Source of the DNA: Fidelibacterota bacterium
Lineage (GTDB): Bacteria; Fidelibacterota; Marinisomatia; SCGC-AAA003-L08; JACNLC01
NCBI GenBank assembly: GCA_024277615.1
Contig: JAJRUW010000054.1
Span: forward strand, 2,944-66,943
DNA: 64,000 bases
Reading direction: 5' to 3'
Under the pieces are notes generated by a model. It made no database searches, was not told where the DNA came from, and worked only from the letters and a program-made list of their open reading frames with translations. Positions within the stretch are counted from its first letter, which is position 1. Each line of letters begins with the position of its first letter. The translations under genes were made by a program, and so were the position numbers. Below, in pieces: positions 4,335 through 57,403 of this stretch.

Positions 4335-4430
4335 CAAAAAACCGGATAACTGAATTTCATTTTGTAATATATCGCTGAAATCGGGCAATTTAAGCTTGAT
4401 TTTTCTACAATTTAATGACGGAATGACCAA

Positions 4431-12988: not shown

Positions 12989-13489
12989 ATGAGTAAAAAA
13001 TTCAAATACAATCTAATCTGGCTCTTGGTCATTTTTTCATTTACAGCAGGTCAAACCTTTGATGAGATGAAATCGACTGTCAAACAGAATAATTACAGCG
13101 CCAGCTATGTAATTCCCTCTTCATCCGGGATCAGCATGGCCGTGAATGTCTGGGGTGAAGTGCGTGCACCGGGACAGTACCTCATCCCTTACTCCATCAA
13201 TCTGGATATCGTTTCTCTCCTCTCACAGGCCGGAGGTCCTACCTCAAATGCCAAGTTGAGCAAGGTTATACTCCTGCGTGAAACTGATGATGCGGGAGAA
13301 CAGCAGAAAATAATTGTCGATCTGAAAGAATTCACCAAAACCGGGGATCGCAGCAAACTGCCAACATTGCAGCCCAATGACACAATCATTATCCTGCCTA
13401 CTTTCTGGAACAGGGTAAAGAGCGGAACGGCCTGGGTGGATATCCTGTATCGTTTTGCCACCATCTATTTACTGATCACGCGGTATTAA
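12989..13489 (+). CDS. Small secreted SLBB-domain protein (polysaccharide-export / Wza-like soluble ligand-binding fold)
   Basis: Signal-like N-terminus, then VNVWGEVRAPGQYLIP...LDIVSLLSQAGGPT...NDTIIILP, the beta-grasp SLBB pattern. Confidence 0.5.
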   Translation: MSKKFKYNLIWLLVIFSFTAGQTFDEMKSTVKQNNYSASYVIPSSSGISMAVNVWGEVRAPGQYLIPYSINLDIVSLLSQAGGPTSNAKLSKVILLRETDDAGEQQKIIVDLKEFTKTGDRSKLPTLQPNDTIIILPTFWNRVKSGTAWVDILYRFATIYLLITRY

Positions 13490-13493
13490 AATT

Positions 13494-14595
13494 ATGGACC
13501 TTACAACATTGAACGAACAATTCGAAGCAGCCAGGAAAAAATATCTTGAGCTACGGGGGTATCTTTGATTGGGATAAACTGAATACCCAGCTTGCCGAAC
13601 TGCAAAAATTCACTCTGGCCCCGGGGTTTTGGGAAGATAACAAACGGGCGCAGACCATTCAGAAAAAGATCAGTCTCATTGAGCATGAAATGGCCATGTG
13701 GCAGGAACTTGAGGAGCGCTCTGCAGAAGTTGAATTGCATTTCGAATTAATCGGTGAAGGGGAAGCCCCGGACCCCGATATCGAAAATGCCCTCACCGGG
13801 TTCGTTGATTATCTTAACATGGTGGAAATCAGGAAAATGCTGAACGGACCGGATGATCACCGGGGTGCAATTTTAGCAATCCATCCAGGCGCAGGGGGGA
13901 CCGAGTCCCAGGACTGGGCCAACATGCTCTACAGACTTTATACCCGCTGGTGTGAGCGACAGTCCTTCAGCACGAAAATTCTTGATTTTCAGCCCGGCGA
14001 CTAGGCCGGTATCAAAGATGTGTCGCTGGAAATTACGGGTGAATACGCATATGGTTATCTCAAAGCGGATGCGGGCGTTCACCGGCTGGTCCGCATTTCA
14101 CCTTTTGACAGCAACTCCCGCCGCCATACGTCCTTTGCTTCGGTCTTTGTTTATCCGTTGATCGATGATGATATTGAAATCGAGATTGACGAGAAAGATC
14201 TACGCATTGACACCTACAGAGCCAGCGGTGCCGGTGGTCAGCACGTGAATAAAACGGATTCCGCCATTCGCATCACACATCTCCCCACCGGTACGGTAGT
14301 GCAATGTCAGAACGAACGCAGTCAGTTGAAAAACAAGCATCAGGCGATGAAAATTCTAAAGGCCAGACTCTATAAACTCAAACAGGAAGAACAGGCGAAA
14401 GAAAAACAAGTTCTGGAAGACCAGAAAATGGATATCGGCTGGGGCAGCCAGATCAGGTCCTACGTCTTTCACACCTACAACCTCGTAAAAGATCACCGCA
14501 CAAAAGAAGAAACGAGTAACATTCAGGCCGTAATGGACGGGGACATCAATCGCTTCATCCGCAAATATTTACTCATGAATATGGAGAAAAAATAA
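13494..14595 (+). CDS. prfB: Peptide chain release factor 2, with a programmed +1 frameshift at 13563-13569 and an in-frame TAG at 14002-14004
   Basis: Frame 0 reads [24 protein letters not shown] then TGA. The +1 frame continues [12 protein letters not shown]. Downstream are the SPF tripeptide (RISPFDS) and GGQ ([11 protein letters not shown]). A TAG interrupts GD-*-AGIKDV. Confidence 0.85.
13551..13569 (+). other. RF2 autoregulatory +1 frameshift site (SD-like CGGGGG, spacer TAT, slippery CTT TGA T)
   Basis: The sequence CGGGGGTATCTTTGAT matches the canonical prfB recoding cassette AGGGGGTATCTTTGAC. Confidence 0.85.
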
Positions 14596-20509: not shown

Positions 20510-23500
20510 TCAAGCCCCCAGAATGACATTGATCAGAATGATCACATCCAAAATGTTCAGCACTCCGTCCTGGTTCAGATCTCCTACTTCTTCCTGCAGC
20601 GGTGAGGGGTCAACGATATCGATGATAATATTGACCATAAGAACGATATCCAGAATATTGGTTGCATTATCGAAATTCAGATCGCCGGGAAGATACTCGG
20701 ACAACATGTGAATGTATGCAGATTTGGTTTCCGTGACCGGATTGCCCGCATAATCCAACACCGTAAGTGAAACATCGTAATCACCCCAGCCGCTGTAATA
20801 ATGCAGAGGATTTTGTTCCATGCTGGTTTCTCCATCGCCAAAATCCCATTGCCACCAGCCTACAAACCCGCTTGATTCGTCAGTGAATCTTATCTGGGCC
20901 GGGGAAAGCGCCGATGTGATATCGGCCGAAAAATCAGCTGTCACCGGATCACCGGCTGCGTAAACCCGCTCTGTATATTCAATACTGCTTTGAGCAATCT
21001 GTGTGTCACTTCGCAACTGGAGGTAATAATACTCATTCGGATTTATGATCATCTGCTCTCCTGACAGATCCTGCCAGTCTGTCCATTCGATCAGACTCAC
21101 CTGGTCGAACCAGGACCGGGCTTCCCCTGAGACAGGCATATCGCTGTTCAGCCGGATGTCAAAATAGCGTGTTGAGGATGGTGGATTTGTATCCTGATAA
21201 TAATAGGTCCAGTCCGTCGTTCCGTTTACATGACTGCCTATATCGTGAGTCACGAGTTGAGAACCGGACGAGCGATTGTGATAATAACGAACTTCAACGG
21301 TTACATTACTGCCATTCTGGGTTTTGATATATCCCTGGAGAGAGTAGTCTTTATCGGGATCTATTTTGACCCGGTTTTGAAGATTCGTCACGATATTATC
21401 TCCTGAATTGGGTAACCGCCGGTGTGTAATGGAGCGCATTCCCCGAAAGGCAATCGTCGTATCCAGCCATTCATCACTACTGTTCAAATTCCATTGAGAG
21501 CTGCCCTCAGCCTCCATATTCCCGTACCAGATCCGTTCTTTACCCAGTCTGAACTGCCAGTTACCATCTGCCTCAGGCTGTTGCAAGACAGCGGGATTCC
21601 CCGTATTATGCACTTTTACGGGGTTTGATATCCAGCCGTTGATGGATGGTGACAGGTTCAGAGGTTTTCTGCTAATGACATCAGTAACGGGCATGTTGAG
21701 GGTGTCTGTAACGATGTGGGCAAGTACCGAGTCCCGGTCGATATATAAATATGTATCGAGCTCACGGGATTTATCGGCGAGGTGATCCAGGATATATAGT
21801 CCCAGGTCTCCCTCCGCTCTCCGGGGAATATAATGATCTATATATACAGGCGTTGCGAAAAAGGCGGTGAATCCGGAATCATCAGCATCAGCGTTGAGAA
21901 TGACGGACGGGAAAGTCTCTTCATAGCTGAGGTCAAAGACGAAATTCCCCAAGGAATGAGCAATGAGTTTACCATTATAGAGTTCAAATCCCTGAATAAT
22001 ATGAGGATGGTGTACGATTACCAGGTCTGCCCCCGAGTCGATGGCGAAATGACGAATTTCACGATCCCACATATGCGGGATATCGAGATAGGGAGAATAG
22101 TTTTCATCTTCATCAGAGAAATCTGGAATATCCATATTGCGGTTATCTTCAACCGGGGCCTGAAAAGTCTGAGGGTCAAGACCATCCCCGTTGAAGAAGT
22201 TATCATAGTTGGCGCCGGGGCCGGTAGAATACTCACTGCCGGCATGCATTTCCATCACAATGAGATCGGCATCTGCCTGTACCGCCTCAATCTGTTGCAG
22301 GAGATAATAAGGACTAAGATAGGCGAATCCGGGTTTGTTGTAGCCCGAATTCAAATAGGGCTGTGCATTATTGTACTGGCCTGTGCGGTCGGAATTTGAC
22401 AAAAAGGCAATGGAAAGTCCTTTTGCAGAATAAAACAAAGGCTGATAAGCTTCCTGCGAATTTTCACCGGCACCGGAAAATAAAATATTATGATTCGATA
22501 ACACATTTTGAGTCGATTGCAGACCGTACAGGCCATAATCGATGGCATGGTTGTTGGCCAGAGTCACAACATCGATCCCGGCATGTACCAATCCGTTAAC
22601 ATTATTAGGATTTCCACGGAAAACTATGGATTTTGTCGGGTGGGGTGTTCCACCGGTCGTGAGCGGACATTCAAGGTTCGAGACGCTGATATCGGCCGCA
22701 TCACCAAGCCAGGGCAGAGTGGGGTCAAAAATTGATTCCACGCCGCTGGTTTCGATGATCCCGCCGTTATCCTCAAAATGCCGCGCCAGCATGATATCTC
22801 CGGTAAAATTCATTGTAAGCGGAAAACTGCTGTCACCGCTGTCCACTTCAATTTGCACCGTAGCCCTGCCCCAGAGTCCTGAACTATCGGCAACTTGCAG
22901 GAGAACCGTGTAAGGATGATCATCCTCGATGATAAAAGTATGCACCGGGTTTGCCTCATCACTGGTTTCACCATCACCGAAGTTCCAGAAATATTCAAAT
23001 TCGTCACTGTCCGGGTCCGTAACGCTGCTGGAAAATGCTACATCGATATTTCTGCTGCCATCTTGCCGACGATACAGATTGCCGAGCTCAAAGGTAATCT
23101 CAACATGAGGGGAGATGGCCAAAACGGGCGTAATATCGAGGACTTCATCGAAGTAGGCCACGCTGCTGTCGTCATCATCCGCATCATTTACGAAAATCAA
23201 GCCGCTAATAACAGGGTAGTAATCGTACCAGGCATACCAGTCATCGGCAAGGGGGAGCTCATAGATATTCCAGTTACGTAGGGGCATGGCTCCCTGGTAC
23301 ACCGGCACCCAATCTTCGATATCCAGCAGTTGACTGCCGCTGAACGAGTACATGAGCGTATGTGCGGAATCCTGTACCCCAAAGCCCTGAATCTCACCCT
23401 CATACTGGGTATAACAGGACACACGCCATACCGTACCGCTGTCCACTGCTGCCGGCTGAATGGATTCGGTTTTCCAGGTATTACCGTACAGTTTGAGTGC

Positions 23501-25261
23501 ATACGGTGACTCCATAAAAGTGTAGGTCGTCGATAGAGCCCAGTGATCGGGTTCGAGGTCCTGGTCCTGAAAAGATCCCAGTTCAACTTCGCCATCATCA
23601 AAATTTTCGATGATCGTATGTGACTGATGCCCTGGGATGGTATCGGTTGTAGCCGTACTCAACTCACCGGCGTTGTCAAAATAATCCACTCCGCGAACCC
23701 TGAAAAGATAGTCTGCCTCACCGTCAAGACCGAGAACAGTCGTACTGATCTGCAGCATATCCAGCAAATCTTCGTCATTGGTTACATCCCAGAAAGGAGA
23801 ATTTTCATCCACGGACACTGTGTCATAAAAAACCTGGTAAGTTCTGAAGTTTGTGTCTTCTGTGTGACTCCATTCAAGGCTGACATAGTGGTATCCGTCA
23901 TAGGTCGAGTGGAGGTTTTGAACCTGTGCGGGGGCAGTTGTATCAGGTACCGTTTCCCAGTTTACGAGATAAGCTTGAACGGCATCGATAAAGGGCTGAT
24001 AGTAGTCCAGGAGAATTTGGAAATTTTGATATGATGTTGGATAGCTGCCGGCATACAGTTCTGTCAGGGGCATATCCAAATCCTGGAATATTTGGGGCTT
24101 TTCATGCAGTTCACACTGCACCCAGGGTTCATAGACACTGCGGTTATCAAAATATTGACGAAGATAGTTCATCTGAACACCGGTATTGGGACCAAGCAGA
24201 GTATAGGTGTGCGGGATGGGGTAATTCTGCGTTTCACCGTAATAATAAAATGAGCCGTTATAATACACCTGATAATAATCATCGATCATTACCGGTTCGT
24301 GAATTCCAAAAGTGTTTTCAGGTATCGTGATTTCATTGGTAAAATTGACAAAATCGAGATGACTATCCGTTATATCCCGAATAGGTTTATTGGCATAGCC
24401 TGCATCCCAGCCCCCTGAAAGTACGATGGAGCGGAATCCGGCATGGGAACTGTTATCGTCAAAGCTGTGCATGTGCAGAACGAGCGGAGAATGGGGGCCG
24501 GTTTGTATCAGCGAATCACTCAATACTTCATGGTAAATCTGAAAAACAGAATTGGCATTTCTGGAGGGGTCAGACCGGGACTTATTATTTGAGTAATTGC
24601 CGCTTTCAGTCCATTTGACTTCGCGTCCGGCACCTGAGATCATCATTGCAAGAGCATCTGTCTCCCTAAAAAGTCGTGTGCCCACGTAGGGAGCAATGAA
24701 ATCATCGCAGGGATGGGGAATTTCTACGATCAATTGCTGCCGGGTTGCTACCGGATTAAGTATGTACAGACCCCAGCCGTTAGCAAAGCTGCCTGAAACC
24801 TCATCCCCGGTAATGTCCGGTTGGTTGGGATCGAAATAAGAATAATCCAGGTTTTCCCGGAGCATGTAGTAGGTCCTGGCATAGGTTGTATCCGTAAATT
24901 CGACGAGTACATAATGAAACGTTGACAACGAATCGGTAAGCAGCTGGTCTGCGGTGTTAATCTCACCGCGCAGCAGGTGCAGGAAAATACTCCTCCAATA
25001 CGGCAGTGTCGGACTGTCTCCCGGAATGATGCGATAATCGCCGAAGCCGTTCGTCTGCACATCCAGCCAGTCCGGACCGTAATCATTGTAGCCCGGGTCT
25101 GCCAGGCCTTCGGAGATATGGCTGACATAGTTCTCATACTCCGTTCCCGGAGAGACCCCGCCGATGAATTCCTGCAGATCGCCCGATTCATAGATGATTT
25201 CGGCGTGAATACACTGATACAGTATGAGCGCCAGGATGATACTGATTATTGTTTTATTCAT
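20510..25261 (-). CDS. Giant secreted multidomain protein: N-terminal hydrolase-like region, FN3, PKD, CapA/PGA_cap metallophosphatase-like domain, CBM-like jelly-roll, PKD, C-terminal dockerin
   Basis: 1583 aa with a signal peptide. FN3 lies at about nt 23660-23945. The two PKD domains carry the WNFGDGETS and WDFGDGETS motifs. The CapA-like segment (FTGDIMLARH...LECPLT...VTLANNHAIDYG...VHHPHIIQG) lies at about nt 21830-22813. Two dockerin Ca-loops (DLNFDNATNILD and DLNQDGVLNILD) sit at the C-terminus. Confidence 0.8.
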   Translation of the reverse strand: MNKTIISIILALILYQCIHAEIIYESGDLQEFIGGVSPGTEYENYVSHISEGLADPGYNDYGPDWLDVQTNGFGDYRIIPGDSPTLPYWRSIFLHLLRGEINTADQLLTDSLSTFHYVLVEFTDTTYARTYYMLRENLDYSYFDPNQPDITGDEVSGSFANGWGLYILNPVATRQQLIVEIPHPCDDFIAPYVGTRLFRETDALAMMISGAGREVKWTESGNYSNNKSRSDPSRNANSVFQIYHEVLSDSLIQTGPHSPLVLHMHSFDDNSSHAGFRSIVLSGGWDAGYANKPIRDITDSHLDFVNFTNEITIPENTFGIHEPVMIDDYYQVYYNGSFYYYGETQNYPIPHTYTLLGPNTGVQMNYLRQYFDNRSVYEPWVQCELHEKPQIFQDLDMPLTELYAGSYPTSYQNFQILLDYYQPFIDAVQAYLVNWETVPDTTAPAQVQNLHSTYDGYHYVSLEWSHTEDTNFRTYQVFYDTVSVDENSPFWDVTNDEDLLDMLQISTTVLGLDGEADYLFRVRGVDYFDNAGELSTATTDTIPGHQSHTIIENFDDGEVELGSFQDQDLEPDHWALSTTYTFMESPYALKLYGNTWKTESIQPAAVDSGTVWRVSCYTQYEGEIQGFGVQDSAHTLMYSFSGSQLLDIEDWVPVYQGAMPLRNWNIYELPLADDWYAWYDYYPVISGLIFVNDADDDDSSVAYFDEVLDITPVLAISPHVEITFELGNLYRRQDGSRNIDVAFSSSVTDPDSDEFEYFWNFGDGETSDEANPVHTFIIEDDHPYTVLLQVADSSGLWGRATVQIEVDSGDSSFPLTMNFTGDIMLARHFEDNGGIIETSGVESIFDPTLPWLGDAADISVSNLECPLTTGGTPHPTKSIVFRGNPNNVNGLVHAGIDVVTLANNHAIDYGLYGLQSTQNVLSNHNILFSGAGENSQEAYQPLFYSAKGLSIAFLSNSDRTGQYNNAQPYLNSGYNKPGFAYLSPYYLLQQIEAVQADADLIVMEMHAGSEYSTGPGANYDNFFNGDGLDPQTFQAPVEDNRNMDIPDFSDEDENYSPYLDIPHMWDREIRHFAIDSGADLVIVHHPHIIQGFELYNGKLIAHSLGNFVFDLSYEETFPSVILNADADDSGFTAFFATPVYIDHYIPRRAEGDLGLYILDHLADKSRELDTYLYIDRDSVLAHIVTDTLNMPVTDVISRKPLNLSPSINGWISNPVKVHNTGNPAVLQQPEADGNWQFRLGKERIWYGNMEAEGSSQWNLNSSDEWLDTTIAFRGMRSITHRRLPNSGDNIVTNLQNRVKIDPDKDYSLQGYIKTQNGSNVTVEVRYYHNRSSGSQLVTHDIGSHVNGTTDWTYYYQDTNPPSSTRYFDIRLNSDMPVSGEARSWFDQVSLIEWTDWQDLSGEQMIINPNEYYYLQLRSDTQIAQSSIEYTERVYAAGDPVTADFSADITSALSPAQIRFTDESSGFVGWWQWDFGDGETSMEQNPLHYYSGWGDYDVSLTVLDYAGNPVTETKSAYIHMLSEYLPGDLNFDNATNILDIVLMVNIIIDIVDPSPLQEEVGDLNQDGVLNILDVIILINVILGA

Positions 25262-27617: not shown

Positions 27618-27968
27618 TTAACAGGTCAAATGTAAAATAGCATTTGTTTTGGCAGGGTCCCGGGCCAGGAGTTCCGCTGCTGCTCCTGTTTTGAGAAGTC
27701 TGAGCTGCACTTGCTTTTGTTCGGCCAGTCTGTGTACATCTTCCGATACCGGCAGGCTGCCGTACATGCCGGTGCCGATAATCAGAGTATGGCAATCCCA
27801 GGGAATATTTTCAGTTGTAGTCAGGGGTGTGTGCGCATAGCGTCCTTTCAAAGCCCGGCTGTTTTTTTTATTCCGTTTGAGAATCTTACCGTCGTCTATG
27901 ACAATATCGTGGGTGTAGCAGATGCCATTGATTTCTATTTCACCAAAAGTTGTATAGTTGATATGCAT
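27618..27968 (-). CDS. Mth938-like (DUF498) domain protein
   Basis: 116 aa. TLIIGTGMYGSLPVSEDV...LLKTGAAAELLA resembles the Mth938-fold family pattern (llIGtG....l.p......T..A...yN). Confidence 0.55.
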   Translation of the reverse strand: MHINYTTFGEIEINGICYTHDIVIDDGKILKRNKKNSRALKGRYAHTPLTTTENIPWDCHTLIIGTGMYGSLPVSEDVHRLAEQKQVQLRLLKTGAAAELLARDPAKTNAILHLTC

Positions 27969-28161: not shown

Positions 28162-28434
28162 TCAATCCCGGGTTGAAATCTGATCCACTACGCCAACAAT
28201 GACAGCACGGACGGGAGCGTTTGCCCGGTCAACAATCTGTCTTGCGGAATTACCCTCATCGATGACCAGTACCGTTTCGCCGGCTCCTGTGCCCACCGTA
28301 TCGACGGCGATGACATATTCTCCGGTGGGTTTACTTTTGTAATCCAGATAATCGACGATCAGCAGTTTTCTGCCATTGTAAAAAGAATGATTAATGGTTG
28401 AATGGATGGCTCCCCGAATTTTTCCAAGCTGCAT
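28162..28434 (-). CDS. BMC-P pentameric vertex protein (EutN/CcmL/PduN family), copy 3
   Basis: 90 aa. The MQLGKIRGAIHST...LLIVDYLD...VIAVDTVGTGAGETVLV pattern is the EutN/CcmL OB-fold. Confidence 0.85.
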   Translation of the reverse strand: MQLGKIRGAIHSTINHSFYNGRKLLIVDYLDYKSKPTGEYVIAVDTVGTGAGETVLVIDEGNSARQIVDRANAPVRAVIVGVVDQISTRD

Positions 28435-28730
28435 CAGTCATCACTCCTCTCCACCGGATAGTCAGTGAGTTTAACATTGTCCACGATGCCGATAATGGCG
28501 TGGTCCACGGGGACGAACCAGGGTTCCAGAGCCAGGGCGGCCTCCCTTGAGCTTTCGTAGTAGATCAATTCACCGCGCCCGCACATACGGGTAGTATCCG
28601 CCGCCACAAAAGGAGAACCGGCCGGGGCCTGTTGCGGGTTCAGAGGCTGGATCAGCAGTAAAGGGACGCCTTCCAGGCCCGTATATACGACACAGGGCGT
28701 CAGCGTACCGATGACCTTACCCAGGTGCAT
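28434..28730 (-). CDS. BMC-P pentameric vertex protein (EutN/CcmL family), copy 2
   Basis: 98 aa. MHLGKVIGTLTPCVVYTGLEGVPLLLIQP...FVAADTT matches EutN/CcmL. Confidence 0.85.
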   Translation of the reverse strand: MHLGKVIGTLTPCVVYTGLEGVPLLLIQPLNPQQAPAGSPFVAADTTRMCGRGELIYYESSREAALALEPWFVPVDHAIIGIVDNVKLTDYPVERSDD

Positions 28731-28731
28731 T

Positions 28732-29337
28732 TTAAATTTCCCCTCCCGGCAGTTGCCGTAAACTGGCAGTCTTGAAACTTGTGGAATGCTCTATCTGCCC
28801 GAGCATCTCCTCCGACAGCCTGGGGATCAAGGTTTCGTTCAGCCAGAGAGATGGCGGATCAATGACTGATCTTGCCAACTCGATTGCAGCGCTTACGGCT
28901 TCGAGCCGTCCGTTAAAGATGGCCAGGCCTTTGCCGCCGATATCGTCACCAAGGCGGAGTTCCACAAGACGGATATCCGTTCCTTTCAGTGACTTGTCTG
29001 CGGCTTTCACAACGGCGGACAGGGTTTCGGTTTCGATAACTGCCAGGGACTCCATCTCAATCGCTTGACGAGTCCCAAGGATTGCTGCATGAACCTCAGG
29101 ATGTACATCGGGCAGGAACAGTTCGTCAAGGATATGGCCTTTACCGCAGGCCAGACCTTCGCGGTAAGATTCCTCCACCGCAGCGACACTGCCGCCGATC
29201 AGGACTATGTACTTTCCATTGTGAACTGTACCGGACCTCAAAACGGTGATGGGTGCTTTTTTTACCATGGCGTCACCTGCATGTATCCCGGCAGGGATGT
29301 GGGCAAACTCGAGAAGGGCAATGGCAGGATATTTCAT
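28732..29337 (-). CDS. BMC-T tandem-domain shell protein, PduT-like
   Basis: 201 aa and collinear with PduT (AIALLEF...GDAMVKKA...GKYIVLIGGSVAAVEES...LAVIETETLSAVVKAADKSLKG...GGKGLAIFNG). The position of PduT's Fe-S ligand Cys38 is occupied by His39. Confidence 0.8.
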   Translation of the reverse strand: MKYPAIALLEFAHIPAGIHAGDAMVKKAPITVLRSGTVHNGKYIVLIGGSVAAVEESYREGLACGKGHILDELFLPDVHPEVHAAILGTRQAIEMESLAVIETETLSAVVKAADKSLKGTDIRLVELRLGDDIGGKGLAIFNGRLEAVSAAIELARSVIDPPSLWLNETLIPRLSEEMLGQIEHSTSFKTASLRQLPGGEI

Positions 29338-30794
29338 TATACGATCCTGAAATGATCCACCAGTACACAGCGACGTTCACGTGTAAAATCTCTCGGACCG
29401 GTCAATCCTTCGCCCGTGGGACTGGCAATCGTAAAGGAGCAATAACCCTCTCCACCGTAGCCGAGGCCGGCCACAGAGGGGCCGTTTTTCACGAAAATAC
29501 TGCAGTCCATCACCCGTGCCATGCGGCTTAGATTATCAAGATTTTTCGAGTGCATAATAGCCGTATGGCGGAAACCGTGTTCAGCCTCCTTTGCAATATC
29601 AATAGCCTGCTCGGCGTTGGGCATCCGCACCAGCGGGATTACCGGCAGCATCTGTTCGGTCCATACCAGCGGGTGACCCGCCTCAACGGGCGCAATTGCC
29701 AGCCGGATACTGTCATCGACTGGTTTGTGAATATTTTTAAGGATAGTCTGCACACTCCGGCCGATGAGGGCTTTGTTAATTACACCGTGTTTGCGCAGGC
29801 CGTTGGTTTGTGAGAAAATGACCTTCTCCAGCCGGGCGATCTCATGTGATTGCAGCACCACTGCATTGTGCCGCTGAAAGGCGGCAACGAGCCTGTCGGC
29901 AACAGACTCTACCACAAAGATCTCTTTTTCGAGGACGCAGATGATGTTATTGTCCAGTGAAGCGCCTTCCACAATGCAGCGGGCGGCATTTTCAATATCA
30001 GCGCTTTCGTCAACCACTACCGGGGGATTACCGGGGCCGGCACAGATGGCCCGCTTCCCGCTTTTCATGGCAGCTTTAACCACGCCGGCGCCACCCGTTA
30101 CCACCAGCAGGTTGATACCGGGATGGGCCATCAATTCCTGTGCACTCTCGATACTGGGTTTACGGACTGTGGTTACCAGGTTTTCCGGACCACCGGCTTC
30201 CTTAATTGCCTGATTGAGCAATTCAAGTGTGTAAAGGCTCACATTGCGGGCGGAAGGATGTACATTGAACACGACGGCATTTCCTGCGGACAGCATTCCG
30301 ATGGTGTTGCAGATAATGGTGGAAGTGGGATTAGTAACTGGTGTGACGGAGCCGATGACACCGAAAGGTGCAGCTTCCATCAGGGTGAGTCCGCGATCGC
30401 CCGTATCAGCTTCGGGAGTTAGGACTTCAGGCCCGGGTGTTTTTTCCGCGACCAGCCGGTTTTTCATGACTTTGTCTTCAACCCGGCCGAGTTCGGTCTC
30501 GACTTGGGCTCTGCTAGCCAGATCTTCGGCATATTCCAGCATTTTTTTACGGATTGCAGCAATGATCTCGTACCGGCTTTTCAGGGTCCGGGTCATAAAC
30601 ACCGACTGAGCTTTTCGGGCCGCCCGGACAGCAGTGTCGATGCTGCTGAAAATTCCATCACCGGCGAATTCATCAGCCGTTGAAGCGGGTACCCGGCTAA
30701 CAGTCGATGCCGGCCATTGAGCGTCAGGTCCAATGAGACCGACGACTTTTGCCGCAATGGATTCCACCTGTTCTGCAGTTAACTGTGACACCAT
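29337..30794 (-). CDS. CoA-acylating aldehyde dehydrogenase (EutE/PduP family) with an N-terminal encapsulation-peptide-like helix
   Basis: The DNNIICVLEKE catalytic Cys context and GPGNPP motif match EutE/PduP. ATG 30794 is preceded by GGGAGAG. Alternative TTG/ATG starts at 30866/30863 would add 24 non-conserved residues. Confidence 0.85.
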   Translation of the reverse strand: MVSQLTAEQVESIAAKVVGLIGPDAQWPASTVSRVPASTADEFAGDGIFSSIDTAVRAARKAQSVFMTRTLKSRYEIIAAIRKKMLEYAEDLASRAQVETELGRVEDKVMKNRLVAEKTPGPEVLTPEADTGDRGLTLMEAAPFGVIGSVTPVTNPTSTIICNTIGMLSAGNAVVFNVHPSARNVSLYTLELLNQAIKEAGGPENLVTTVRKPSIESAQELMAHPGINLLVVTGGAGVVKAAMKSGKRAICAGPGNPPVVVDESADIENAARCIVEGASLDNNIICVLEKEIFVVESVADRLVAAFQRHNAVVLQSHEIARLEKVIFSQTNGLRKHGVINKALIGRSVQTILKNIHKPVDDSIRLAIAPVEAGHPLVWTEQMLPVIPLVRMPNAEQAIDIAKEAEHGFRHTAIMHSKNLDNLSRMARVMDCSIFVKNGPSVAGLGYGGEGYCSFTIASPTGEGLTGPRDFTRERRCVLVDHFRIV

Positions 30795-30862
30795 ATCTCT
30801 CCCGTTAAAAATTAACATCCTCCGTGCACCGGCCGGTAACAGTCCCAACCTGTGCCCGGCCA

Positions 30863-31162
30863 TCAATCATCCGTACCTTTTTTATACTTCACCTCACCGG
30901 CGACTTCCCAGCTGTCCACAATGGCCATGACCACTGCATCGCAGGGCCGCTTGTCGGTTCTCACTGTCTGGCGTCCTGAGCTGCCGGTAGCGAAGAGTAC
31001 GATTTCACCCACACCGGCATCCACCGCGTCCACAGCCACGAGACTGCCTCCGGCGGGTGTCCCGTCCAAGTCAACTTTCTGCAGGATCAGGAATTTCAAA
31101 CCCTCAAGGCTTGCTTCCTTTTGTGTGGCGACCACAGTCCCCACTACTTTTGCGAGATTCAT
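30863..31162 (-). CDS. BMC-P pentameric vertex protein (EutN/CcmL family), copy 1
   Basis: 99 aa. [31 protein letters not shown]...[16 protein letters not shown] matches EutN/CcmL. Confidence 0.85.
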
Positions 31163-31174
31163 TTTTCCTCCGGA

Positions 31175-31486
31175 CTACTTAGTACCCTTCATCTCAGCCT
31201 TACCCTGTGTGGTTCTGCCCAGGGGAAGAATTGCATCCACATTGGGATGGGGACGAGCAATAATATGTACTGCTACGATTTCGCCAACTCTGGCAGCACC
31301 GGCTTTACCGGCTTCACAGGCGGCTTTTACAGCGGCAACATCACCACGGATGCAAACCGTAACATAACCACCCCCTGTTTTTTCGTAAGATACCAATTCA
31401 ACTTTTGCGGCTTTCACCATTGCATCCGCAGCTTCAACCACTGCAGGATAACCTCTGGTCTCCAGCATTCCTAATGCTTCAGCCAT
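31175..31486 (-). CDS. BMC-H hexameric shell protein (PduA/EutM-like)
   Basis: 103 aa. [29 protein letters not shown]...[19 protein letters not shown] is a canonical Pfam00936 domain. A strong SD (TAAGGAGGTGACAAC) precedes the ATG. Confidence 0.9.
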
Positions 31487-31564
31487 GTTGTCACCTCCTT
31501 ATTTTATTAAGTTCGCGTTTCAAGTTATGAAATCTGTTCATTTAGTTTGTAGGATACTCTTTTC

Positions 31565-32188
31565 TCAACTGTGATGTTCTTTGCCGGTCACCTCTTCGAT
31601 GGCCCGTACGGCAGCCCGCCAGCCCACATCGATATCCCGTTCTTTACCTCCGAGGTAGATCCGACCGAATGACCCGAAGGATCTGACTTCGAGAATATTG
31701 ATCTCCGCTGCTTTCTCCGCTTCGTTGGCGGCCAGTGCCGCATAGGCGGCCGGCTGAACCTCCATGACGAAGAGCGTCTCACCGGGAACGATCATATTGC
31801 CGTGGCGCATACGGTTGATGAGCTGAGTTTGATGATCATCGATACGTCGGATAACCTGTTTGGAGAAGATCTTCGGCTTCCAGCGGTCACCCTCGGTAAG
31901 TTCAAGGGCCGCTAAAATAGATTGCCCGGCCTGACGTACATCGGCCTGGGATTCGGAATGGATCTCAAGCATACCATACAAGCGTTCCACGATTTGCATC
32001 CCGGGTGTTACATTTGTCGATTTCAAGGCAATGTCCGTGATGCGGTTGATCTCAATTCCAGGCGATATCTCAATATATAATGAGGCCATCCCGGTAATGG
32101 GCAGAAAGCCCTTGGCCACCGTGCCCAGAAAAGCTGCATATTGGGGCTGCAGATTATCTAAAAATACATAAGCTCTCAGATCTACCAC
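31565..32188 (-). CDS. BMC-T tandem-domain shell protein, probably the permuted double-stacking (CsoS1D/CcmP-like) type
   Basis: 207 aa. [21 protein letters not shown]...[12 protein letters not shown]...QLINRMRHG...[15 protein letters not shown]...GRIYLGG resembles, from memory, the Haliangium BMC-T2/T3 class. The subtype assignment is inference. Confidence 0.7.
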
Positions 32189-32215
32189 TTCGTCTCCTTC
32201 ATAATTCGTTTTGAG

Positions 32216-33631
32216 TTAATTTGAAATTGTCACCGACCGGGATTCGTTCATGATCCTGATCCCGGCGCTGGCACCCAGCCGTGTGGCTCCTGCAGCTATC
32301 ATTTTGCGGGCATCGTCGTAGGATGAGATCCCGCCGGCGGCCTTCACGCCCATTCCTACCGGTTGCACAATTTTGCTCATAAGTTCTACATCTTCTACCG
32401 TTGCACCATGTGGACCGAAACCGGTGGAAGTTTTGACATAATTAGCCCTTGCCCTGACGGCCAGTTTGCAGGCTCGTACTTTCTCTTCGTCGGTCAGATA
32501 GGCCGTTTCAATGATAACTTTGGAGATTGCACTACCGTCACTGCAGGCTTCACTCACACCGCGTATATCCCGATAAACCAGATCGTCATCACCGCTTTTC
32601 AAAGCACCGATGTTGATCACCATGTCGATTTCTCCCGCACCTTCACGGATGGCCTGACGAGCTTCCAGAGCTTTGATCTCAGGCGCGTGTGCACCGGAGG
32701 GGAATCCCACAACCGTACAGACACTGACGGTTGTCCCCTCCAGTTCCCGGGCGGCGAGTCCGACATAACTGGGAGATACGCATACGGAAGCGAATTGAAA
32801 TTCCCGGGCTTCTTTGCAGATTCTGATGATATCGTCAGTTGTGGCTGTGGGTTTGAGATATGTGTGGTCGATACAGCGGGCGATGTCTTCCGGGACGCAA
32901 CCGCCGCCGGTGCCGTCGTGATATCCAAAGCGGTTGACGCCCATCTGCATAAAGTGACGCAGGGTAACCGGATCTTTTTCCAGATGTACACCGCAGCGGC
33001 ATACCATTTCCGAGTCACAGGAGGCTCCCGTACCGGCAGTCAAAGCGCCGCCTGTCATCAGTTCGCGGACTCTTGCGGCAATTCTGGTCATATCATCTTC
33101 TGTGATGGGCGGCACGTCTTCCTCCTTTTCAGGTTGTGTTGCGATTTTACCAGGCAGCTGTTTATCAGCGGCCCTATCCAGATCATCGATCATTTTTACA
33201 CGCCGCAAATGTCGCTCTTCCGTGCAGCTGACAGTGAGAAAAATATCAGCGATCTGTTTCGCCAGAGCCATTCCCGTGAGACCGGCTCCCAGGGTTAAAA
33301 GATTGGCATTATTATGTTCCCGGGCATTCCTGGCAGTGGATAAGTCGTAGCACAAGGCGGCCCTGACACCCATGATTTTATTGGCGGTCATAGCTGACCC
33401 GATTCCGGCGCCATCTACAACAATACCGAAATCGACTTCACCGGCAGAGACCTTCCCGGCCACAATGCGGGCAAATTCAGGATAATCTACAGGCCGGCTG
33501 CTAAAAGTGCCGCAATCTTTTACAAGATAGCCCTGGCCGGAGAGGTGGCTCAGCAGGGCTTCCTTCAGGGCAAAACCCCCGTGGTCTGCCCCCAGGGCAA
33601 TTGAAAGTTTTTGTTGCTGTGAAGCTGACAT
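32216..33631 (-). CDS. Fusion protein: RpiB/LacAB-family sugar-phosphate isomerase domain, linker helix, deoxyribose-phosphate aldolase (DeoC/DERA) domain
   Basis: The N-terminal half reads [11 protein letters not shown]...[13 protein letters not shown]...[13 protein letters not shown] (RpiB fold). The C-terminal half reads IDHTYLKP...VCV...IDMVINIG...YVKTSTGF...VKAAGGI, with the DERA Schiff-base Lys motifs intact. Confidence 0.85.
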
Positions 33632-33647
33632 ACTGTGTAACCCCTGA

Positions 33648-34610
33648 CTAACTCTGTTGCTCTAACAATTCCGTTGCGGTAAACTCATCAGTGATGAGTA
33701 CATTAAAATAGCTGCCATTGAGTGCTGCCCGGATGGGTGCCGTTTTTTGTGGTCCTCCTGCTACGGCTACAGACCAGGGTTTGTCTTTCAGCCCGGCTAA
33801 GCTGATACCGATTGTACGTTCATCAAGTTCCGGTGAGGAAATACTGCCGTCACCACTGATAATCCGGGAGCAGATATCGCCAACAGCACCTGCCTTAAGC
33901 AATTGTTCCACTTCGGGAGTTTCAAAATAATCCGCCTTAACCAGGGCGGATTGCTGGCCGAAGGAGCCAACCGTGAAGAGTGCGACTGTGGCCTGTTCGG
34001 CGAGTGCAAGTGTCCGGGCAATGTTTTTATCCGAAATGATGTTGTGTTTGAGCTCGGCCCGGTCCACCACCGCAGGCAGAGGCAGCAGATAGGGCACTGC
34101 TCCAAACCGATCACCCAGACGACGAACGATCTCACTGGCATGTGTGTCGTATTCCGCCCGGGAAATACCCCCATTGAGCTGCACTACGGCAACATCCCGC
34201 AGTTTCAGTCCGGGCATCGCAAGTGAAACGGCCTGCAGGGTGGTGCCCCAGGAGACCCCAAGGACTGTACCGTCACTTACAATTTGCTCTAAAAATTTTG
34301 CTGCTGCCCGGGCCAGCCTTGATTTGAGTTTCGCCTCTTCGCCGGTGTCGCTGGGGACGACGCTTACGGCTTTCAGGTGAAAACGATTTTGTAATTCATT
34401 TTCCAGAGCAGTACCCTGCCTGGCAGGATCGATAATCTCTATTTTGACAATTCCCTCTGAGCGGGCTTTGTGCAGAAGTCTGGAAACACCCGGTCTGGAA
34501 ACACCTAATTTTTCGGCAATTTGCTGCTGGCTGAATTGGTGCTCATAGTAAAGCCTGGCCACTTCGTAAAGCAGGCGGGAAACATCCTCCTTGTACAGGT
34601 TAGAGGGCAT
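33648..34610 (-). CDS. SorC/DeoR-type sugar-binding transcriptional regulator
   Basis: The HTH region ([38 protein letters not shown]) is followed by a SorC sugar-phosphate-binding domain. Start chosen at ATG 34610 (MPSNLYKED); the 389-aa track ORF has a non-homologous extension. Confidence 0.8.
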
Positions 34611-34618
34611 GATCAGTC

Positions 34619-34654
34619 TTGAACATTTGTTCATTTGTAAATAACATCTGTTCA
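34619..34654. promoter_or_regulatory. Candidate operator: inverted repeat TGAACA-tt-TGTTCA plus an ATCTGTTCA copy, recurring at 31528-31540 upstream of the BMC-H gene
   Basis: TGAACATTTGTTCA lies at 34620-34633 and ATCTGTTCA at 34646-34654. The identical 9-mer ATCTGTTCA, preceded by TGAA, lies at 31528-31540 in the only sizeable intergenic gap inside the operon. Confidence 0.25.
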
Positions 34655-35040
34655 AATCTATGAAAGCTTTGATAAACGATGCAAGGGAAAACTTCATTAC
34701 GCCGGTCTGGGCACATCCGTCCAAAATGTTTGAGCGGTACTTCATGGTAGTTTCAATCATCAAATTGACATCTGCTCTGGTAGAGCAATACTTTTGTAGA
34801 ATTGCATTGCATATCATTGATCAGCTCCCGAGGAGCGATATTTAAAGGTTGTAGTTTAGACCTAACTTAGGCAGGTTTGTACAGGCCGCGCAGCTGGCAG
34901 CCCTACAACTCAGGTGTGTTACGGAATCGAAGTTCAAACCAAACTTTCGGTCACAGTCGTCTTATCCCTGCGAATCCTGTTGAAAAATCGCCTTTTAGAA
35001 AGCTAAATTTTCCGTCTGAAATAAAGATGGATTTAACATA

Positions 35041-36045
35041 TTGAACACTGATCAAAACCAGCCAAGAGAGGTCCTCGTTGAGGTCAACGGTCTAAAAAAA
35101 TATTTCCCTATCCGCCGGGGATTTTTTTCCCGCATACAAGGTTACGTCAAAGCCGTGGATGATGTTTCATTCAAGTTATTCCGGGGTGAAACTCTGGGAC
35201 TCGTCGGCGAATCCGGCTGCGGGAAGACCACCACCGGACGTCTGATCCTCCAGTTGCTCCAATCGACAGCAGGCTCCGTTAAATTTGAGGGACGGGAGCT
35301 GGTCGGGCTTTCCAGCCGTGAACTGCGACCGCTCCGCAGGGGGATGCAGATTATCTTCCAGGACCCATACAGTTCTTTAAACCCCCGCATGACAGTCGAG
35401 AATATGCTGGCTGAAGCATTACGCGTACACCGGATAGTTCCAAAATCTGAAATCACTACCGAGATTTACCGGCTGCTGGATATTGTGGGTTTACCCCGGC
35501 TGCATGCCAAACGCTATCCCCATGAGTTTTCCGGCGGACAGCGCCAGCGTATCGGTATTGCCAGAGCACTTTCGGTGAGGCCCAAACTGATAATCCTGGA
35601 TGAGCCCGTGTCAGCACTGGATGTTTCCATCCAGGCCCAGATCATCAATCTGCTGAAAGAACTGCAGAAATCCTATGGATTGACCTATCTTTTCATCGCA
35701 CACGACCTATCGGTTGTAGAATATATTTCCGATCGGGTCGCGGTGATGTATCTCGGTAAAATCACTGAAATCGCAGATGCGGCAGAGCTCTATCATACTA
35801 CTCAGCACCCCTATTCAAATGCACTGCTGTCGGCTGTTCCCATTGCGGATCCGGACAACAAATCCCGACGCATTATCCTCACTGGAGATGTGCCCAGCCC
35901 GGCGAATCCGCCCTCAGGCTGTACTTTTCATCCGCGCTGCCCTCTGGCCAATGCCAACGGAGGCTTTATTGAGCAATGCCGTCTGGAACAGCCCGGACTC
36001 GTTGAAAAATCTGAAAATCACTTTACTGCCTGTCATCAGGTCTGA
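35041..36045 (+). CDS. Oligopeptide/dipeptide ABC transporter ATP-binding protein (OppF/DppF-like), with no permease genes adjacent
   Basis: Walker [10 protein letters not shown], signature FSGGQRQR, Walker B LIILDEP, and the Opp-type C-terminal extension ([12 protein letters not shown]...[11 protein letters not shown]). TTG start. Confidence 0.8.
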
Positions 36046-37344
36046 ATGAAAAAGAACCTAAAAAAAATAGCTTTCCATACCCTTGGGTGCAAATTGAATT
36101 ATGCCGAGACCTCGACGATCGCCAGAGATTTTACGCGGAACGACTATGAGATTGTGAACTTTTCGGATCCGGCTGATGTCTATGTGCTCAACACCTGCAC
36201 GGTTACGGGTAATGCCGAACGCAAATGCCGTAAACTCATCCGGCAGCTTCGGAAACGCGCACCCCGTGCTTATGTCGCTGTAGTAGGCTGTTATGCCCAA
36301 TTGCGGGCAGAGCAGATCGCCGCTGTCCCCGGTGTGGATCTGGTGCTGGGCTCAGCTGAAAAATTTGATCTACTTCATCATTTGGGGGAACATCCTAAAA
36401 ACGGCACACCGGTAGTTCTCACAAGTCACAGGCAGGATCAGCTTGACTACCATGCTTCCTGGTCCGCCGGGACGCGTACGCGCTCTTTCCTGAAAATTCA
36501 GGATGGCTGCGACTACAATTGCTCCTACTGTACCATCCCCATGGCCCGTGGTCAAAGCCGGAACGGCAGCATCGGGGAAGTGCTTACCGCCGCACAGGCT
36601 ATTATAAGCCGGGGCATAAATGAGATTGTCCTGACAGGCGTGAATATTGGAGATTTCGGGAAAAGTACAGGCGAATCCTTTACGGCTCTGTTGCGGGCTA
36701 TGAAGGACGTTAAAGGACTGAATCGCCTGCGTATATCTTCCATTGAGCCCAATCTCCTGACCGATGAGATTCTCGAATTGATGGCCTCATCGCCTGTATT
36801 CTGTCCCCATTTTCACCTTCCGCTGCAGTCCGGTTCCGACAGAGTTCTGGGGCTCATGAAACGGCGTTACACCAGAGAAGATTATGCCCGGCGTGTAAAC
36901 CGGATTCGCCAGCTGCTGCCGAACGCCTTCGTCGCCGGGGATGTGATAGTCGGGTTCCCCGGTGAAACGGCGGAAGATTTTCATCAAACCGTGGAGTTCA
37001 TCCGGGAACTTGAGATCTCAGCACTGCATGTATTCACCTATTCGGAGCGCCCCGATACGGTCGCATTGCAACTGACCGGCGCTGTGAATCCGGCGGAACG
37101 GGAGCGGCGCAGCCGTGAATTGCACGACCTGTCAAAGCTGAAAATACAAGTTTTTTACAGCCGGGCTGTGGGTCAGACAAGAACTGTGCTTTTTGAGACC
37201 TGTAATGCCGGAAGGCTCACCGGTTTTACTGATAATTACATAAAGGTGACGGTTCCCGGCACCGGGGATCTGTGCAATACTCTTGCTGAAGTAAAACTGA
37301 CCGGGAGAGCCGACGATGTTCTGAATGGAGAAATTGTGCAATGA
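36046..37344 (+). CDS. mtaB: tRNA t6A37 methylthiotransferase MtaB (radical SAM)
   Basis: MTTase N-domain cysteines, the radical SAM motif CDYNCSYC and a C-terminal TRAM domain. Confidence 0.8.
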   Translation: MKKNLKKIAFHTLGCKLNYAETSTIARDFTRNDYEIVNFSDPADVYVLNTCTVTGNAERKCRKLIRQLRKRAPRAYVAVVGCYAQLRAEQIAAVPGVDLVLGSAEKFDLLHHLGEHPKNGTPVVLTSHRQDQLDYHASWSAGTRTRSFLKIQDGCDYNCSYCTIPMARGQSRNGSIGEVLTAAQAIISRGINEIVLTGVNIGDFGKSTGESFTALLRAMKDVKGLNRLRISSIEPNLLTDEILELMASSPVFCPHFHLPLQSGSDRVLGLMKRRYTREDYARRVNRIRQLLPNAFVAGDVIVGFPGETAEDFHQTVEFIRELEISALHVFTYSERPDTVALQLTGAVNPAERERRSRELHDLSKLKIQVFYSRAVGQTRTVLFETCNAGRLTGFTDNYIKVTVPGTGDLCNTLAEVKLTGRADDVLNGEIVQ

Positions 37345-37958
37345 TCTCCGCACCCTTCATCGGGATTGCAGGTAATATCGGCGTGGGAAAGACCACTTTC
37401 ACAAAAACACTTGCCGGACATTACGGCTGGAAAACCTTTTTTGAATCTGTTGTGGATAATCCGTATCTGGGTGATTTTTATGCGGACATGAGCCGCTGGA
37501 GTTTCAACCTCCAGATTTACTTTTTGCAGCACCGCTTCCGGACTCACATGGACATGGCCAATACCGAGGGCGGCGTGATCCAGGACAGAACCATTTACGA
37601 AGATGTGGAGATCTTCGCGCGCAACCTGAGTGATATGCACCTCATGTCAAAACGGGATTGGTCCACATACCGCAATTTATTCATGAACATGACCTCCTTT
37701 CTGCGCAAACCCGACTTGATCATCTATCTGCGGGCTAATATTGATACTTTGATCATACGCATCAAAAAACGCAGCCGTGATTTTGAAAAAGGGATTGATC
37801 CGGAATATCTTTATCGCCTGAGTATTCTGTATGAGCAGTGGATGAAGAGGTTGGATGATATCCCCGTACTCAAGGTAGAAACGGATGATTTTGATATTTT
37901 CAAAGATGAAACCAAACTGCGGGATATTTATCGCCAAATTGAAGAAAAACTATCCTGA
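37341..37958 (+). CDS. Deoxynucleoside kinase
   Basis: P-loop IAGNIGVGKTT, ERS-like QDRTIYED and the dNK family layout. 205 aa. Confidence 0.8.
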   Translation: MISAPFIGIAGNIGVGKTTFTKTLAGHYGWKTFFESVVDNPYLGDFYADMSRWSFNLQIYFLQHRFRTHMDMANTEGGVIQDRTIYEDVEIFARNLSDMHLMSKRDWSTYRNLFMNMTSFLRKPDLIIYLRANIDTLIIRIKKRSRDFEKGIDPEYLYRLSILYEQWMKRLDDIPVLKVETDDFDIFKDETKLRDIYRQIEEKLS

Positions 37959-52612: not shown

Positions 52613-52613
52613 A

Positions 52614-53042
52614 ATGGTCATCGCCATCGGTAGTGATCATGCCGGTTTTGATCTGAAAAAAATGATCATCGGGCAGCTGCAGGCAGCCGGCTACACAGTC
52701 AGCGATCACGGGACAAATTCAAAGGCAGCCGTGGACTATCCGGAATTTGCCCATGCTGTCGGTAAAGCGGTTGCTTCCGGAGATGCGGAAAAGGGCATAG
52801 TCATCTGCGGTACCGGTATCGGCATGTCAATTGCCGCTAATAAAGTGCCGGGGATTCGTGCAGCCCTCTGTCCCACAACTGAACATGCTAAACTTAGCAG
52901 AGCCCACAACGACGCCAATGTTCTGGCTCTTGGAGCTCGTCTCACCTCTCCGGATGATATCCGTGCAATCATTGAAGTCTGGCTTTATACAACCTTTGAG
53001 GGGCATCGTCATCAAAGGAGAATCGATAAAATTGAAATATAG
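52614..53042 (+). CDS. rpiB: Ribose-5-phosphate isomerase B (free-standing, catalytic Cys present)
   Basis: IGSDHAGFDLK, GIVICGTGIGMSIAANK and RAHNDANVLALGAR. Start at ATG 52614, just after the upstream stop; the track's 52545 start overlaps the upstream gene. Confidence 0.9.
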   Translation: MVIAIGSDHAGFDLKKMIIGQLQAAGYTVSDHGTNSKAAVDYPEFAHAVGKAVASGDAEKGIVICGTGIGMSIAANKVPGIRAALCPTTEHAKLSRAHNDANVLALGARLTSPDDIRAIIEVWLYTTFEGHRHQRRIDKIEI

Positions 53043-57156: not shown

Positions 57157-57343
57157 AACATTTCTCAAGTCATGTTTAATTTGTTTACAAAAATAAAACT
57201 GCTTTATATTCAGCTTTAATTTAATGGAGAATTTATAGACTTTCGCTAATAGGATTGCGGATCTCATGTGAGATCTGAAATTGTTGAACAAAGTATTTGT
57301 TGTTTTGCAGGGGTCCTGTGCGTTGGTCTGGTTTATAAAAAAT

Positions 57344-57388: not shown

Positions 57389-57403
57389 GGAGGTGCAGTT
57401 TCA

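Follow-up and report, generated by a model that had tools for sequence, protein, structure and literature searches.

A 64,000-nucleotide stretch of contig JAJRUW010000054.1 (hereafter the window) carries on its minus strand, between positions 28162 and 34610, a bacterial microcompartment (BMC) locus that most probably encodes a DeoR-regulated metabolosome of sugar-phosphate-utilising type 3 (SPU3), in which deoxyribose-5-phosphate would be converted to acetyl-CoA and an RpiB-like domain would assist the deoxyribose-5-phosphate aldolase (DERA) to which it is fused. This reading is drawn from the genes themselves and from their published relatives. The SPU3 assignment is supported by agreement with the published description on every feature tested, the comparison having been made feature by feature with Supplementary Data 2 of Sutter et al. 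(2021). A first-pass annotation, made from the letters of the sequence, had placed the locus in the SPU class; this is supported, and comparison with the published locus catalogue description narrows it to the SPU3 subtype (PMC8217296). Observations are given below on gene content, on residues and motifs, and on synteny and selection.

Gene Content and Gene Calls

Nine co-directional open reading frames (ORFs), all intact, lie at 28162-34610 (-), where the first-pass annotation had put them, and make up a locus of nine genes and 6.4 kb (the span is 28162-34817 if the longest ORF of the regulator is counted). Pfam and NCBIfam profile searches of the locus proteins confirmed the identities and the order first proposed, i.e., DeoR/SorC regulator, RpiB-DERA fusion, BMC-T(dp), BMC-H, BMC-P, aldehyde dehydrogenase (AldDH), PduT-like BMC-T(s), BMC-P, and BMC-P. 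The features of the locus, from the promoter side onward, are as follows.

34655-34684 (-): promoter-like element by consensus match, with TTGCAT (34679-34684), an 18-nt spacer, and TAGATT (34655-34660); abuts the operator
34620-34654 (-): putative DeoR-box operator pair of the TGAACA-NN-TGTTCA type, presumably bound by the regulator
33648-34610 (-): DeoR-subfamily SorC-type regulator, 320 aa; Sugar-bind, E 1e-70
32216-33631 (-): RpiB-like/DERA fusion, the signature cargo enzyme, 471 aa in a single ORF; LacAB_rpiB, E 6e-48, and DeoC
33056-33106 (-): candidate internal encapsulation-peptide-like helix between the domains of the fusion, residues 176-192
31565-32188 (-): BMC-T(dp), a CcmP-like, permuted, double-stacking tandem-domain trimer with a predicted gated pore; BMC domain
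31175-31486 (-): BMC-H, the sole hexamer protein, 103 aa; Pfam BMC, E 7e-29
30863-31162 (-): BMC-P number 1, 99 aa, nearest to CcmL/EutN; EutN_CcmL, E 4e-29; CcmL model, 98.6 bits
29337-30794 (-): CoA-acylating AldDH, 485 aa from the ATG at 30794 (ORF 29337-30866); Aldedh
30732-30782 (-): predicted N-terminal encapsulation peptide of AldDH, LTAEQVESIAAKVVGLI, followed by a Pro/Ala-rich linker
28732-29337 (-): BMC-T(s), a PduT-like tandem-domain trimer without the pore Cys; two BMC domains
28434-28730 (-): BMC-P number 2, 98 aa; EutN_CcmL, E 5.9e-16
28162-28434 (-): BMC-P number 3, 90 aa, with which the operon ends; EutN_CcmL, E 1.5e-24

The genes had been described as tightly packed or overlapping, and intergenic gaps of -4 to 78 nt agree with this. 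The overlap of the AldDH gene with the preceding BMC-P gene disappears, however, since the most likely AldDH start is the ATG at 30794. This ATG comes after the ribosome-binding site GGGAGAG, and it is supported by homologues and by the way the gene was called in L082, a syntenic contig (see below). The regulator is taken to start at the ATG at 34610, since homologue alignments begin there and the conserved promoter and operator fall inside the longer ORF. Past the last gene follows a gap of 193 nt and then a DUF498 gene (27618-27968), which was considered as a tenth member of the operon and rejected on account of this gap and because it adjoins no related locus. A tblastn comparison of all locus proteins with the 64-kb window found no extra shell genes elsewhere in it, an Rfam scan of the whole window at gathering thresholds came back empty, which leaves the locus without a neighbouring riboswitch or RNA gene, and a promoter/terminator scan gave nothing convincing as a minus-strand terminator past the last gene. 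The G+C content of the locus is 52-53%, against 46-49% in most of the flanks.

The Cargo Enzymes

That the signature enzyme is an RpiB-DeoC fusion, as first proposed, is borne out, and its aldolase half keeps the catalytic-motif residues of a DERA. The DERA domain scores 279 bits against the TIGR00126 deoC model (cutoff 117), and D336, K400, and K430 are unchanged in 25 of 25 full-length fusion homologues. Matched by motif (EIDMV, YVKTST, and GVKAAG), these residues are the counterparts of D102, K167, and K201 in E. coli DERA. The RpiB half, on the other hand, should not be assumed to be an isomerase. Compared with E. coli RpiB structures it has Asp73 in place of the catalytic Cys66 and Ala75 in place of Thr68 (DGAG vs. 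CGTG), while it keeps the equivalents of His99, Asp9/His10, and Arg133/His134/Arg137. Position 73 is Asp in 24 of the 25 homologues and the motif DGAGIGS is near invariant, its G, A, and G being present in all 25. An Asp at the Cys66 position is found in all SPU ribose-5-phosphate isomerases (RPIs) (Dwyer, Sutter and Kerfeld, 2024, PMC11585597). Mean identity among the fusion homologues is 60-61% for the RpiB domain and 62-64% for the DERA domain, compared to 22-24% for the linker between them. A canonical RpiB stands alone elsewhere in the window (52545-53042, plus strand), just upstream of glyA; it scores 172 bits against TIGR01120, retains the catalytic Cys and Thr in VICGTGIG, and is 44% identical to the RpiB-like domain of the BMC locus. 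It follows that the pentose-phosphate isomerase of the cell is not the compartment copy.

The AldDH scores 649.6 bits against NF011927 (cutoff 403), and its nearest solved structures are those of CoA-acylating enzymes, the best being 5jfl (E 1.4e-131), with the Cys of DNNIICVLEKE being aligned to DNNLPCVAEKE. The pattern L[ST]xx[EQ][IV][DE]xIAxR is kept at the AldDH N-terminus in homologues from related loci of many phyla. In the fusion, the helix of residues 176-192 is the only conserved motif of the linker, and it resembles the AldDH motif, both being short conserved helices; both are predicted to serve in encapsulation. A hydrophobic-moment scan did not single out the encapsulation peptides, and the signal came instead from conservation among homologues. 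An AlphaFold2 single-sequence model of the fusion was unusable (mean pLDDT 38, pTM 0.29).

Past the encapsulation-peptide-like helix, at residues of about 200-245, the fusion has a Cys-rich stretch, which in the window reads C-x6-C-x-C plus a later Cys. Many fusion homologues share it (those of the related loci L001, L008, and L015-L023), with four Cys in Chloroflexota, but it is not family-wide, as the fusions of Woeseiaceae, Thermoanaerobaculia, and L002 are without it. It may form a metal-binding knuckle.

The Shell

Three pfam00936 proteins and three pfam03319 proteins, each above the gathering score, are encoded within 4 kb, which bears out the inventory of one BMC-H, two BMC-T, and three BMC-P first read from the translations. 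The first tandem protein, initially called a permuted-type BMC-T, can be specified further. It scores 336.7 bits against the NCBIfam CcmP model (cutoff 340), matches the CcmP structures 5lsr and 4ht5 at E 2e-85 and the T protein in the Haliangium shell structure 5v74 at E 1.6e-70, with CsoS1D being a poorer match (E 6e-54), and its VERLYG is aligned to IERLYG of CcmP. Because of these structure matches and the aligned motif it is assigned to the double-stacking BMC-T(dp). The Glu-Arg pair within both motifs is presumably the pore gate. The second tandem protein matches PduT structures at E 7e-28 and has a His (TVHNGKY) aligned with PduT residue 38, which is Ser in the solved chains and the Fe-S-binding Cys in wild-type PduT. 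BMC-H shows the usual interface motifs VKAAK and ARPH. The three BMC-P proteins share 27-37% pairwise identity; numbers 2 and 3 are adjacent and overlap by 1 nt, whereas number 1 is encoded apart from them and is 29-37% identical to the other two.

Regulator, Operator, and Promoter

The regulator combines a helix-turn-helix with a sugar-phosphate-binding domain and has DeoR as its closest relative, which places it in the DeoR subfamily. It scores 350.7 bits against the NCBIfam DeoR model, below the cutoff of 420; among solved structures B. subtilis DeoR (8r7y) matches it best, at E 4e-72, and the recognition helices of the two are nearly the same. One difference is seen in the part of the protein where Bacillus has VVQLKGG, the Lys of which is Asn in the window regulator and in six other BMC-linked homologues, while a Neobacillus DeoR encoded beside a free-standing DERA keeps the Lys. 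This Lys is by count K141, which Skerlova et al. (2014) reportedly identified as the Schiff-base residue for the effector.

B. subtilis DeoR represses the deoxyribose/deoxynucleoside operon, is released by covalently binding deoxyribose-5-phosphate, and recognises an operator with the half-site TTGAACA (PMC11229326). Upstream of the window regulator are two boxes of matching type. The proximal box (34620-34633) is a perfect palindrome, TGAACAAATGTTCA, 9 nt upstream of the start codon, and the distal box (34641-34654) is a degenerate copy, TGAACAGATGTTAT, 21 bp upstream of the proximal one. Both boxes and their 21-bp spacing are kept upstream of the regulator in L001, L002, and L082 even though the flanking DNA has diverged, and within 1.27 Mb of scanned sequence the perfect box occurs only twice, at this position and in L001. 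The adjoining promoter-like element is aligned with TTGACA-N18-TAGCTT in L001 and TTGACT-N17-TAGTTT in L002, although a stricter promoter/terminator scan did not flag it. We infer that the operon is autoregulated and transcribed from a promoter upstream of the regulator gene, where the two DeoR boxes would keep it repressed until a sugar-phosphate effector, probably deoxyribose-5-phosphate, accumulates. A third TTGAACA (35041-35047) lies inside the start of the divergent ABC-ATPase gene; it is not taken as an operator, because the 7-mer by itself is not enriched in the window (16 observed vs. 11.5 +/- 3.2 expected).

Relatives, Selection, and Host

Relatives of the fusion protein were sought in a scan with one genome per GTDB species, which returned 593 stretches, many of them with DERA-only matches. 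The best fusion matches were in two metagenome-assembled genomes (MAGs) of Ca. Neomarinimicrobiota (66 and 63% identity). At least 18 of 45 tabulated loci have their genes in the order RpiB-DERA, Tdp, H, P, AldDH, Ts, P, P. They come from Woeseiaceae, Thermoanaerobaculia, Lentisphaerae, Chloroflexota, Acidimicrobiia, Neomarinimicrobiota, and others, and incomplete contigs were compatible with this order. A second arrangement, seen in Anaerolineae, has no Ts, an AldDH of about 30% identity, and a Tdp of about 50% identity to those of the window. Judged by these features it corresponds to the published SPU6 type, and the window locus falls outside it.

An exact-protein look-up found MreB of the window recorded and thereby led to L082, while the fusion, BMC-H, and a deoxynucleoside kinase were without record. 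L082 is a 49-kb JGI metagenome contig (3300005096, Ga0072503_112474). It is syntenic with the window in the locus as well as in the flanks, with about 82% of nucleotides identical. It covers five genes of the locus, for which dN/dS between the two was 0.006 in Tdp, 0.008 in H, 0.066 in P, 0.090 in the fusion, and 0.107 in the regulator, i.e., in the same range as for neighbouring housekeeping genes (0.00-0.13). Given these low values and the shared site in L082, the locus is under strong purifying selection and vertically inherited in the lineage. In the Neomarinimicrobiota MAG L001 the locus has a context different from that in the window. This, along with the higher G+C content, suggests that the locus was acquired horizontally, longer ago.

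In L001 a 450-aa ORF (3445-4797, plus strand) lies directly upstream of the regulator on the same strand and has no equivalent in the window. By motifs read in its sequence it looks like a member of the phosphoglucomutase/phosphomannomutase family, and it could be a phosphopentomutase that supplies deoxyribose-5-phosphate.

An FCB-type host, as proposed from the first, is plausible because of the type IX secretion markers in the window and because the nearest loci are in Ca. Neomarinimicrobiota MAGs. The markers are a PorV-like protein (57281-58735, plus strand) and, next after it, a protein of 882 aa (58745-61393, plus strand) that ends in the sorting domain of type IX secretion, Por_Secre_tail.

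Proposed Pathway and Alternatives

The substrate, the direction of the pathway, encapsulation, and regulation are proposed here from knowledge of the protein families and from the enzyme assay of an SPU6 system. Deoxyribose-5-phosphate from the breakdown of DNA or deoxynucleosides would enter the shell, where the DERA domain would cleave it to glyceraldehyde-3-phosphate, leaving for glycolysis, and acetaldehyde, which would be retained. The AldDH would then convert acetaldehyde, CoA, and NAD+ to acetyl-CoA and NADH. No phosphotransacylase (PTAC), PduS, or alcohol dehydrogenase was present in the locus or among the window ORFs submitted to Pfam. Acetyl-CoA, CoA, and NAD(H) would therefore have to pass between shell and cytosol, for which the large gated pore of BMC-T(dp) is the most plausible route. 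An ORF with SLBB domains (12989-13489) was considered as a PduS and rejected, as it has only 166 aa and SLBB domains only. The RpiB-like domain, which is without the canonical catalytic Cys and Thr yet keeps the phosphate-binding residues and is as conserved as the DERA domain, would most likely be an assembly or organising partner of DERA, possibly one that binds sugar phosphate, and not a ribose-5-phosphate isomerase.

The SPU class was initially described as uncharacterised biochemically. This still applies to SPU3 shells and to the fusion enzyme, but no longer to the DERA and RPI of SPU6 or to archaeal shells. The SPU6 DERA was purified and is active on deoxyribose-5-phosphate, and its RPI partner, which has the Cys to Asp change, forms complexes with DERA and has negligible isomerase activity (PMC11585597). 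For archaeal SPU-type compartments, shell assembly and encapsulation-peptide-dependent cargo recruitment have been reported (2025 preprint, PMC12747264).

Several points weigh against a deoxyribose-5-phosphate metabolosome. This locus, like any SPU3 locus, is so far known from its genes. Its content does not account for the recycling of cofactors, and of the enzymes that would provide deoxyribose-5-phosphate (phosphopentomutase, nucleoside phosphorylase, and deoxyribokinase) Pfam gave none for the window ORFs submitted to it. That the altered motif DGAGIGS is so strongly conserved could signal a catalytic role for the RpiB-like domain. Finally, if the Bacillus Lys does form the Schiff base, the BMC-linked regulators, with Asn in its place, would hold the effector in another way or respond to another compound.

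The last two points lead to an alternative in which the organelle is the same and its primary substrate is another. The RpiB-like domain, with Asp and Ala in its active site, would then be an active isomerase or epimerase for another sugar phosphate that feeds the aldolase, and the regulator would sense that compound in place of deoxyribose-5-phosphate. It is easier to understand in this way why the RpiB domain is conserved to nearly the same degree as the DERA domain, why its modified motif and all its phosphate-binding residues are invariant or nearly so, and why the BMC-linked DeoR-like regulators consistently are without the Bacillus Lys; moreover, the sole assay of an SPU RPI tried ribose-5-phosphate only (PMC11585597). 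On the other hand the DERA domain scores as a deoC equivalog far above the cutoff and is complete in its catalytic-motif residues, the SPU6 enzyme does act on deoxyribose-5-phosphate, operator and DNA-binding helix both resemble those of DeoR, and SPU5 loci work without any RPI (PMC8217296; PMC11585597). On balance a different primary substrate is improbable. It is likewise doubtful that the SPU3 compartment is something other than a plain deoxyribose-5-phosphate organelle, with DGAGIGS conferring a new sugar-phosphate activity or substrate gating and the regulator answering to another effector. If true, the RpiB-like activity and the other effector would imply a different or additional entry metabolite.

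The deoxyribose-5-phosphate pathway could also be imagined to run in reverse as an aldehyde sink, so that acetyl-CoA is reduced to acetaldehyde, which is joined to glyceraldehyde-3-phosphate to give a sugar phosphate, and reducing equivalents are disposed of. A model of this kind has reportedly been proposed for Atribacteria. Both reactions are reversible in principle, and a locus without an NAD+-regenerating enzyme leaves room for redox balancing. However, no onward route is encoded for the deoxyribose-5-phosphate produced, the RpiB-like domain is without the catalytic residues to act on a pentose phosphate, DeoR-type control is typical of catabolic deoxyribose operons, and catabolism is the direction favoured in published SPU models (PMC11585597; PMC12747264), all of which makes the reverse direction very unlikely. 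That the locus is an inactive, horizontally acquired relic is hardly credible, as against its deviating G+C content and its other genomic context in L001 stand nine intact ORFs, the low dN/dS relative to L082, which holds the locus at the same chromosomal site, and the conserved promoter and operator.

Other Features of the Window

The remainder of the window is housekeeping in nature (dxs, methylmalonyl-CoA mutase, ftsH, folP, prfB, lysS, purN, purH, mreBCD, PBP2, rodA, glyA, and the Mla transporter), together with the type IX secretion markers already mentioned. The deoxynucleoside kinase (37341-37958, plus strand; PF01712, E 1.5e-58) is encoded on the strand opposite to the locus and 2.7 kb away from it, within a string of MiaB-like, dNK, purN, and purH genes whose arrangement is kept in L082; it belongs to salvage and not to catabolism. 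In front of the divergent oligopeptide-type ABC ATPase gene, about 85 bp (34975-35060, plus strand, in the window; 4830-4920 in L082) are near-identical between the two, while other intergenic DNA there has diverged; this stretch looks like a conserved promoter or 5' leader.

In the prfB gene for release factor 2 (13494-14595, plus strand), the classic site of programmed +1 frameshifting, GGGGGTATCTTTGAT, is present near 13552-13568. The PCRF/RF-1 coding region is moreover interrupted in its middle by a TAG in frame (14002-14004, within GAC TAG GCC GGT). A single base change would turn this TAG into a sense codon such as GAG; it could be a sequencing error, the mark of a pseudogene, or a recoding event. 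A 1583-aa ORF (20510-25261, minus strand) unites PGA_cap (E 1e-59) with PKD repeats and, at the C-terminus, a type I dockerin domain, which is an unusual combination. Two large ORFs of 949 and 414 aa (47286-51376, plus strand) have no Pfam match at E 1e-5, and both are conserved in L082.

Significance

SPU compartments are among the most widespread BMC types. As the locus agrees with the catalogued SPU3 type feature for feature, it is a good specimen of that type and not a discovery, and current understanding is unchanged. What it adds is small and testable, i.e., the conserved DeoR-box operator and the Lys to Asn change in BMC-linked regulators. Being compact and complete, with no missing or satellite parts in 64 kb and with a syntenic relative, it would serve conveniently as a template from which to reconstitute an SPU3 compartment heterologously. 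It also suits the question of how a metabolosome without PTAC, alcohol dehydrogenase, and PduS recycles CoA and NAD+. With respect to ecology, the locus suggests that a Marinimicrobia-like lineage scavenges deoxyribose derived from DNA.

Comparison with Known Systems

The shell has counterparts in systems with other contents. The Haliangium ochraceum shell shares the BMC-P triplet and a similar T protein (5v74), and it differs in cargo. The beta-carboxysome protein CcmP is close to the window BMC-T(dp), whereas carboxysome cargo consists of RuBisCO and carbonic anhydrase. For regulation, the nearest system is DeoR and the dra-nupC-pdp operon of B. subtilis, which shares with the window the closest solved regulator, the TTGAACA half-site, and a regulated DERA gene. 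That operon serves non-compartmentalised deoxyribose catabolism and has no shell genes; its operator is a palindrome plus a direct repeat where the window has two TGAACA-NN-TGTTCA boxes 21 bp apart, and its regulator has the VVQLKGG Lys where that of the window has Asn and is presumably co-transcribed with its operon.

Among compartments, the SPU-type loci of Hodarchaeales also have a core of DERA and AldDH with terminal or interdomain encapsulation peptides, and deoxyribose-5-phosphate is the proposed entry metabolite there as it is here (PMC12747264). They differ in the fusion of DERA to a flavoprotein domain, in having PTAC and other enzymes, and in the DNA-binding disordered tail of one pentamer protein. 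SPU6, as in Chloroflexi bacterium GWB2_54_36, is like the window in its signature enzyme DERA, in the Cys to Asp change of RPI, and in having three BMC-P, one BMC-H, and a BMC-T(dp). In SPU6 the two enzymes are separate proteins that form a complex, while in the window they are fused. Furthermore, SPU6 has an AldDH of another clade with a C-terminal encapsulation peptide, no BMC-T(s), a GntR-like regulator, and another gene order.

The closest match is SPU3, for which no tested feature differs from the window. SPU3 loci encode AldDH and the pfam02502 and pfam01791 domains, partly fused with pfam02502 first (Sutter et al., 2021, PMC8217296), and 20 such fusions have been counted (PMC11585597). 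As in the window, AldDH and the fusion with its N-terminal pfam02502 are the only enzymes, and PTAC is absent; SPU types without PTAC typically encode a BMC-T(dp) (PMC11585597). The encapsulation peptides occupy the same positions, one at the AldDH N-terminus and an internal, encapsulation-peptide-like sequence in the fusion (PMC8217296; PMC11585597), and an SPU3 chimera has already been modelled structurally (PMC11585597). The SPU3 shell likewise has one BMC-H, a BMC-P triplet of which two are adjacent, a BMC-T(dp) akin to CcmP, and a BMC-T(s) that has no pore Cys, and PduS is lacking (PMC8217296). The DeoR-type regulator and the operator of the window are not mentioned in the SPU3 accounts (PMC8217296; PMC11585597), and these are what the present locus adds to a type whose described hosts include Marinimicrobia (PMC8217296).

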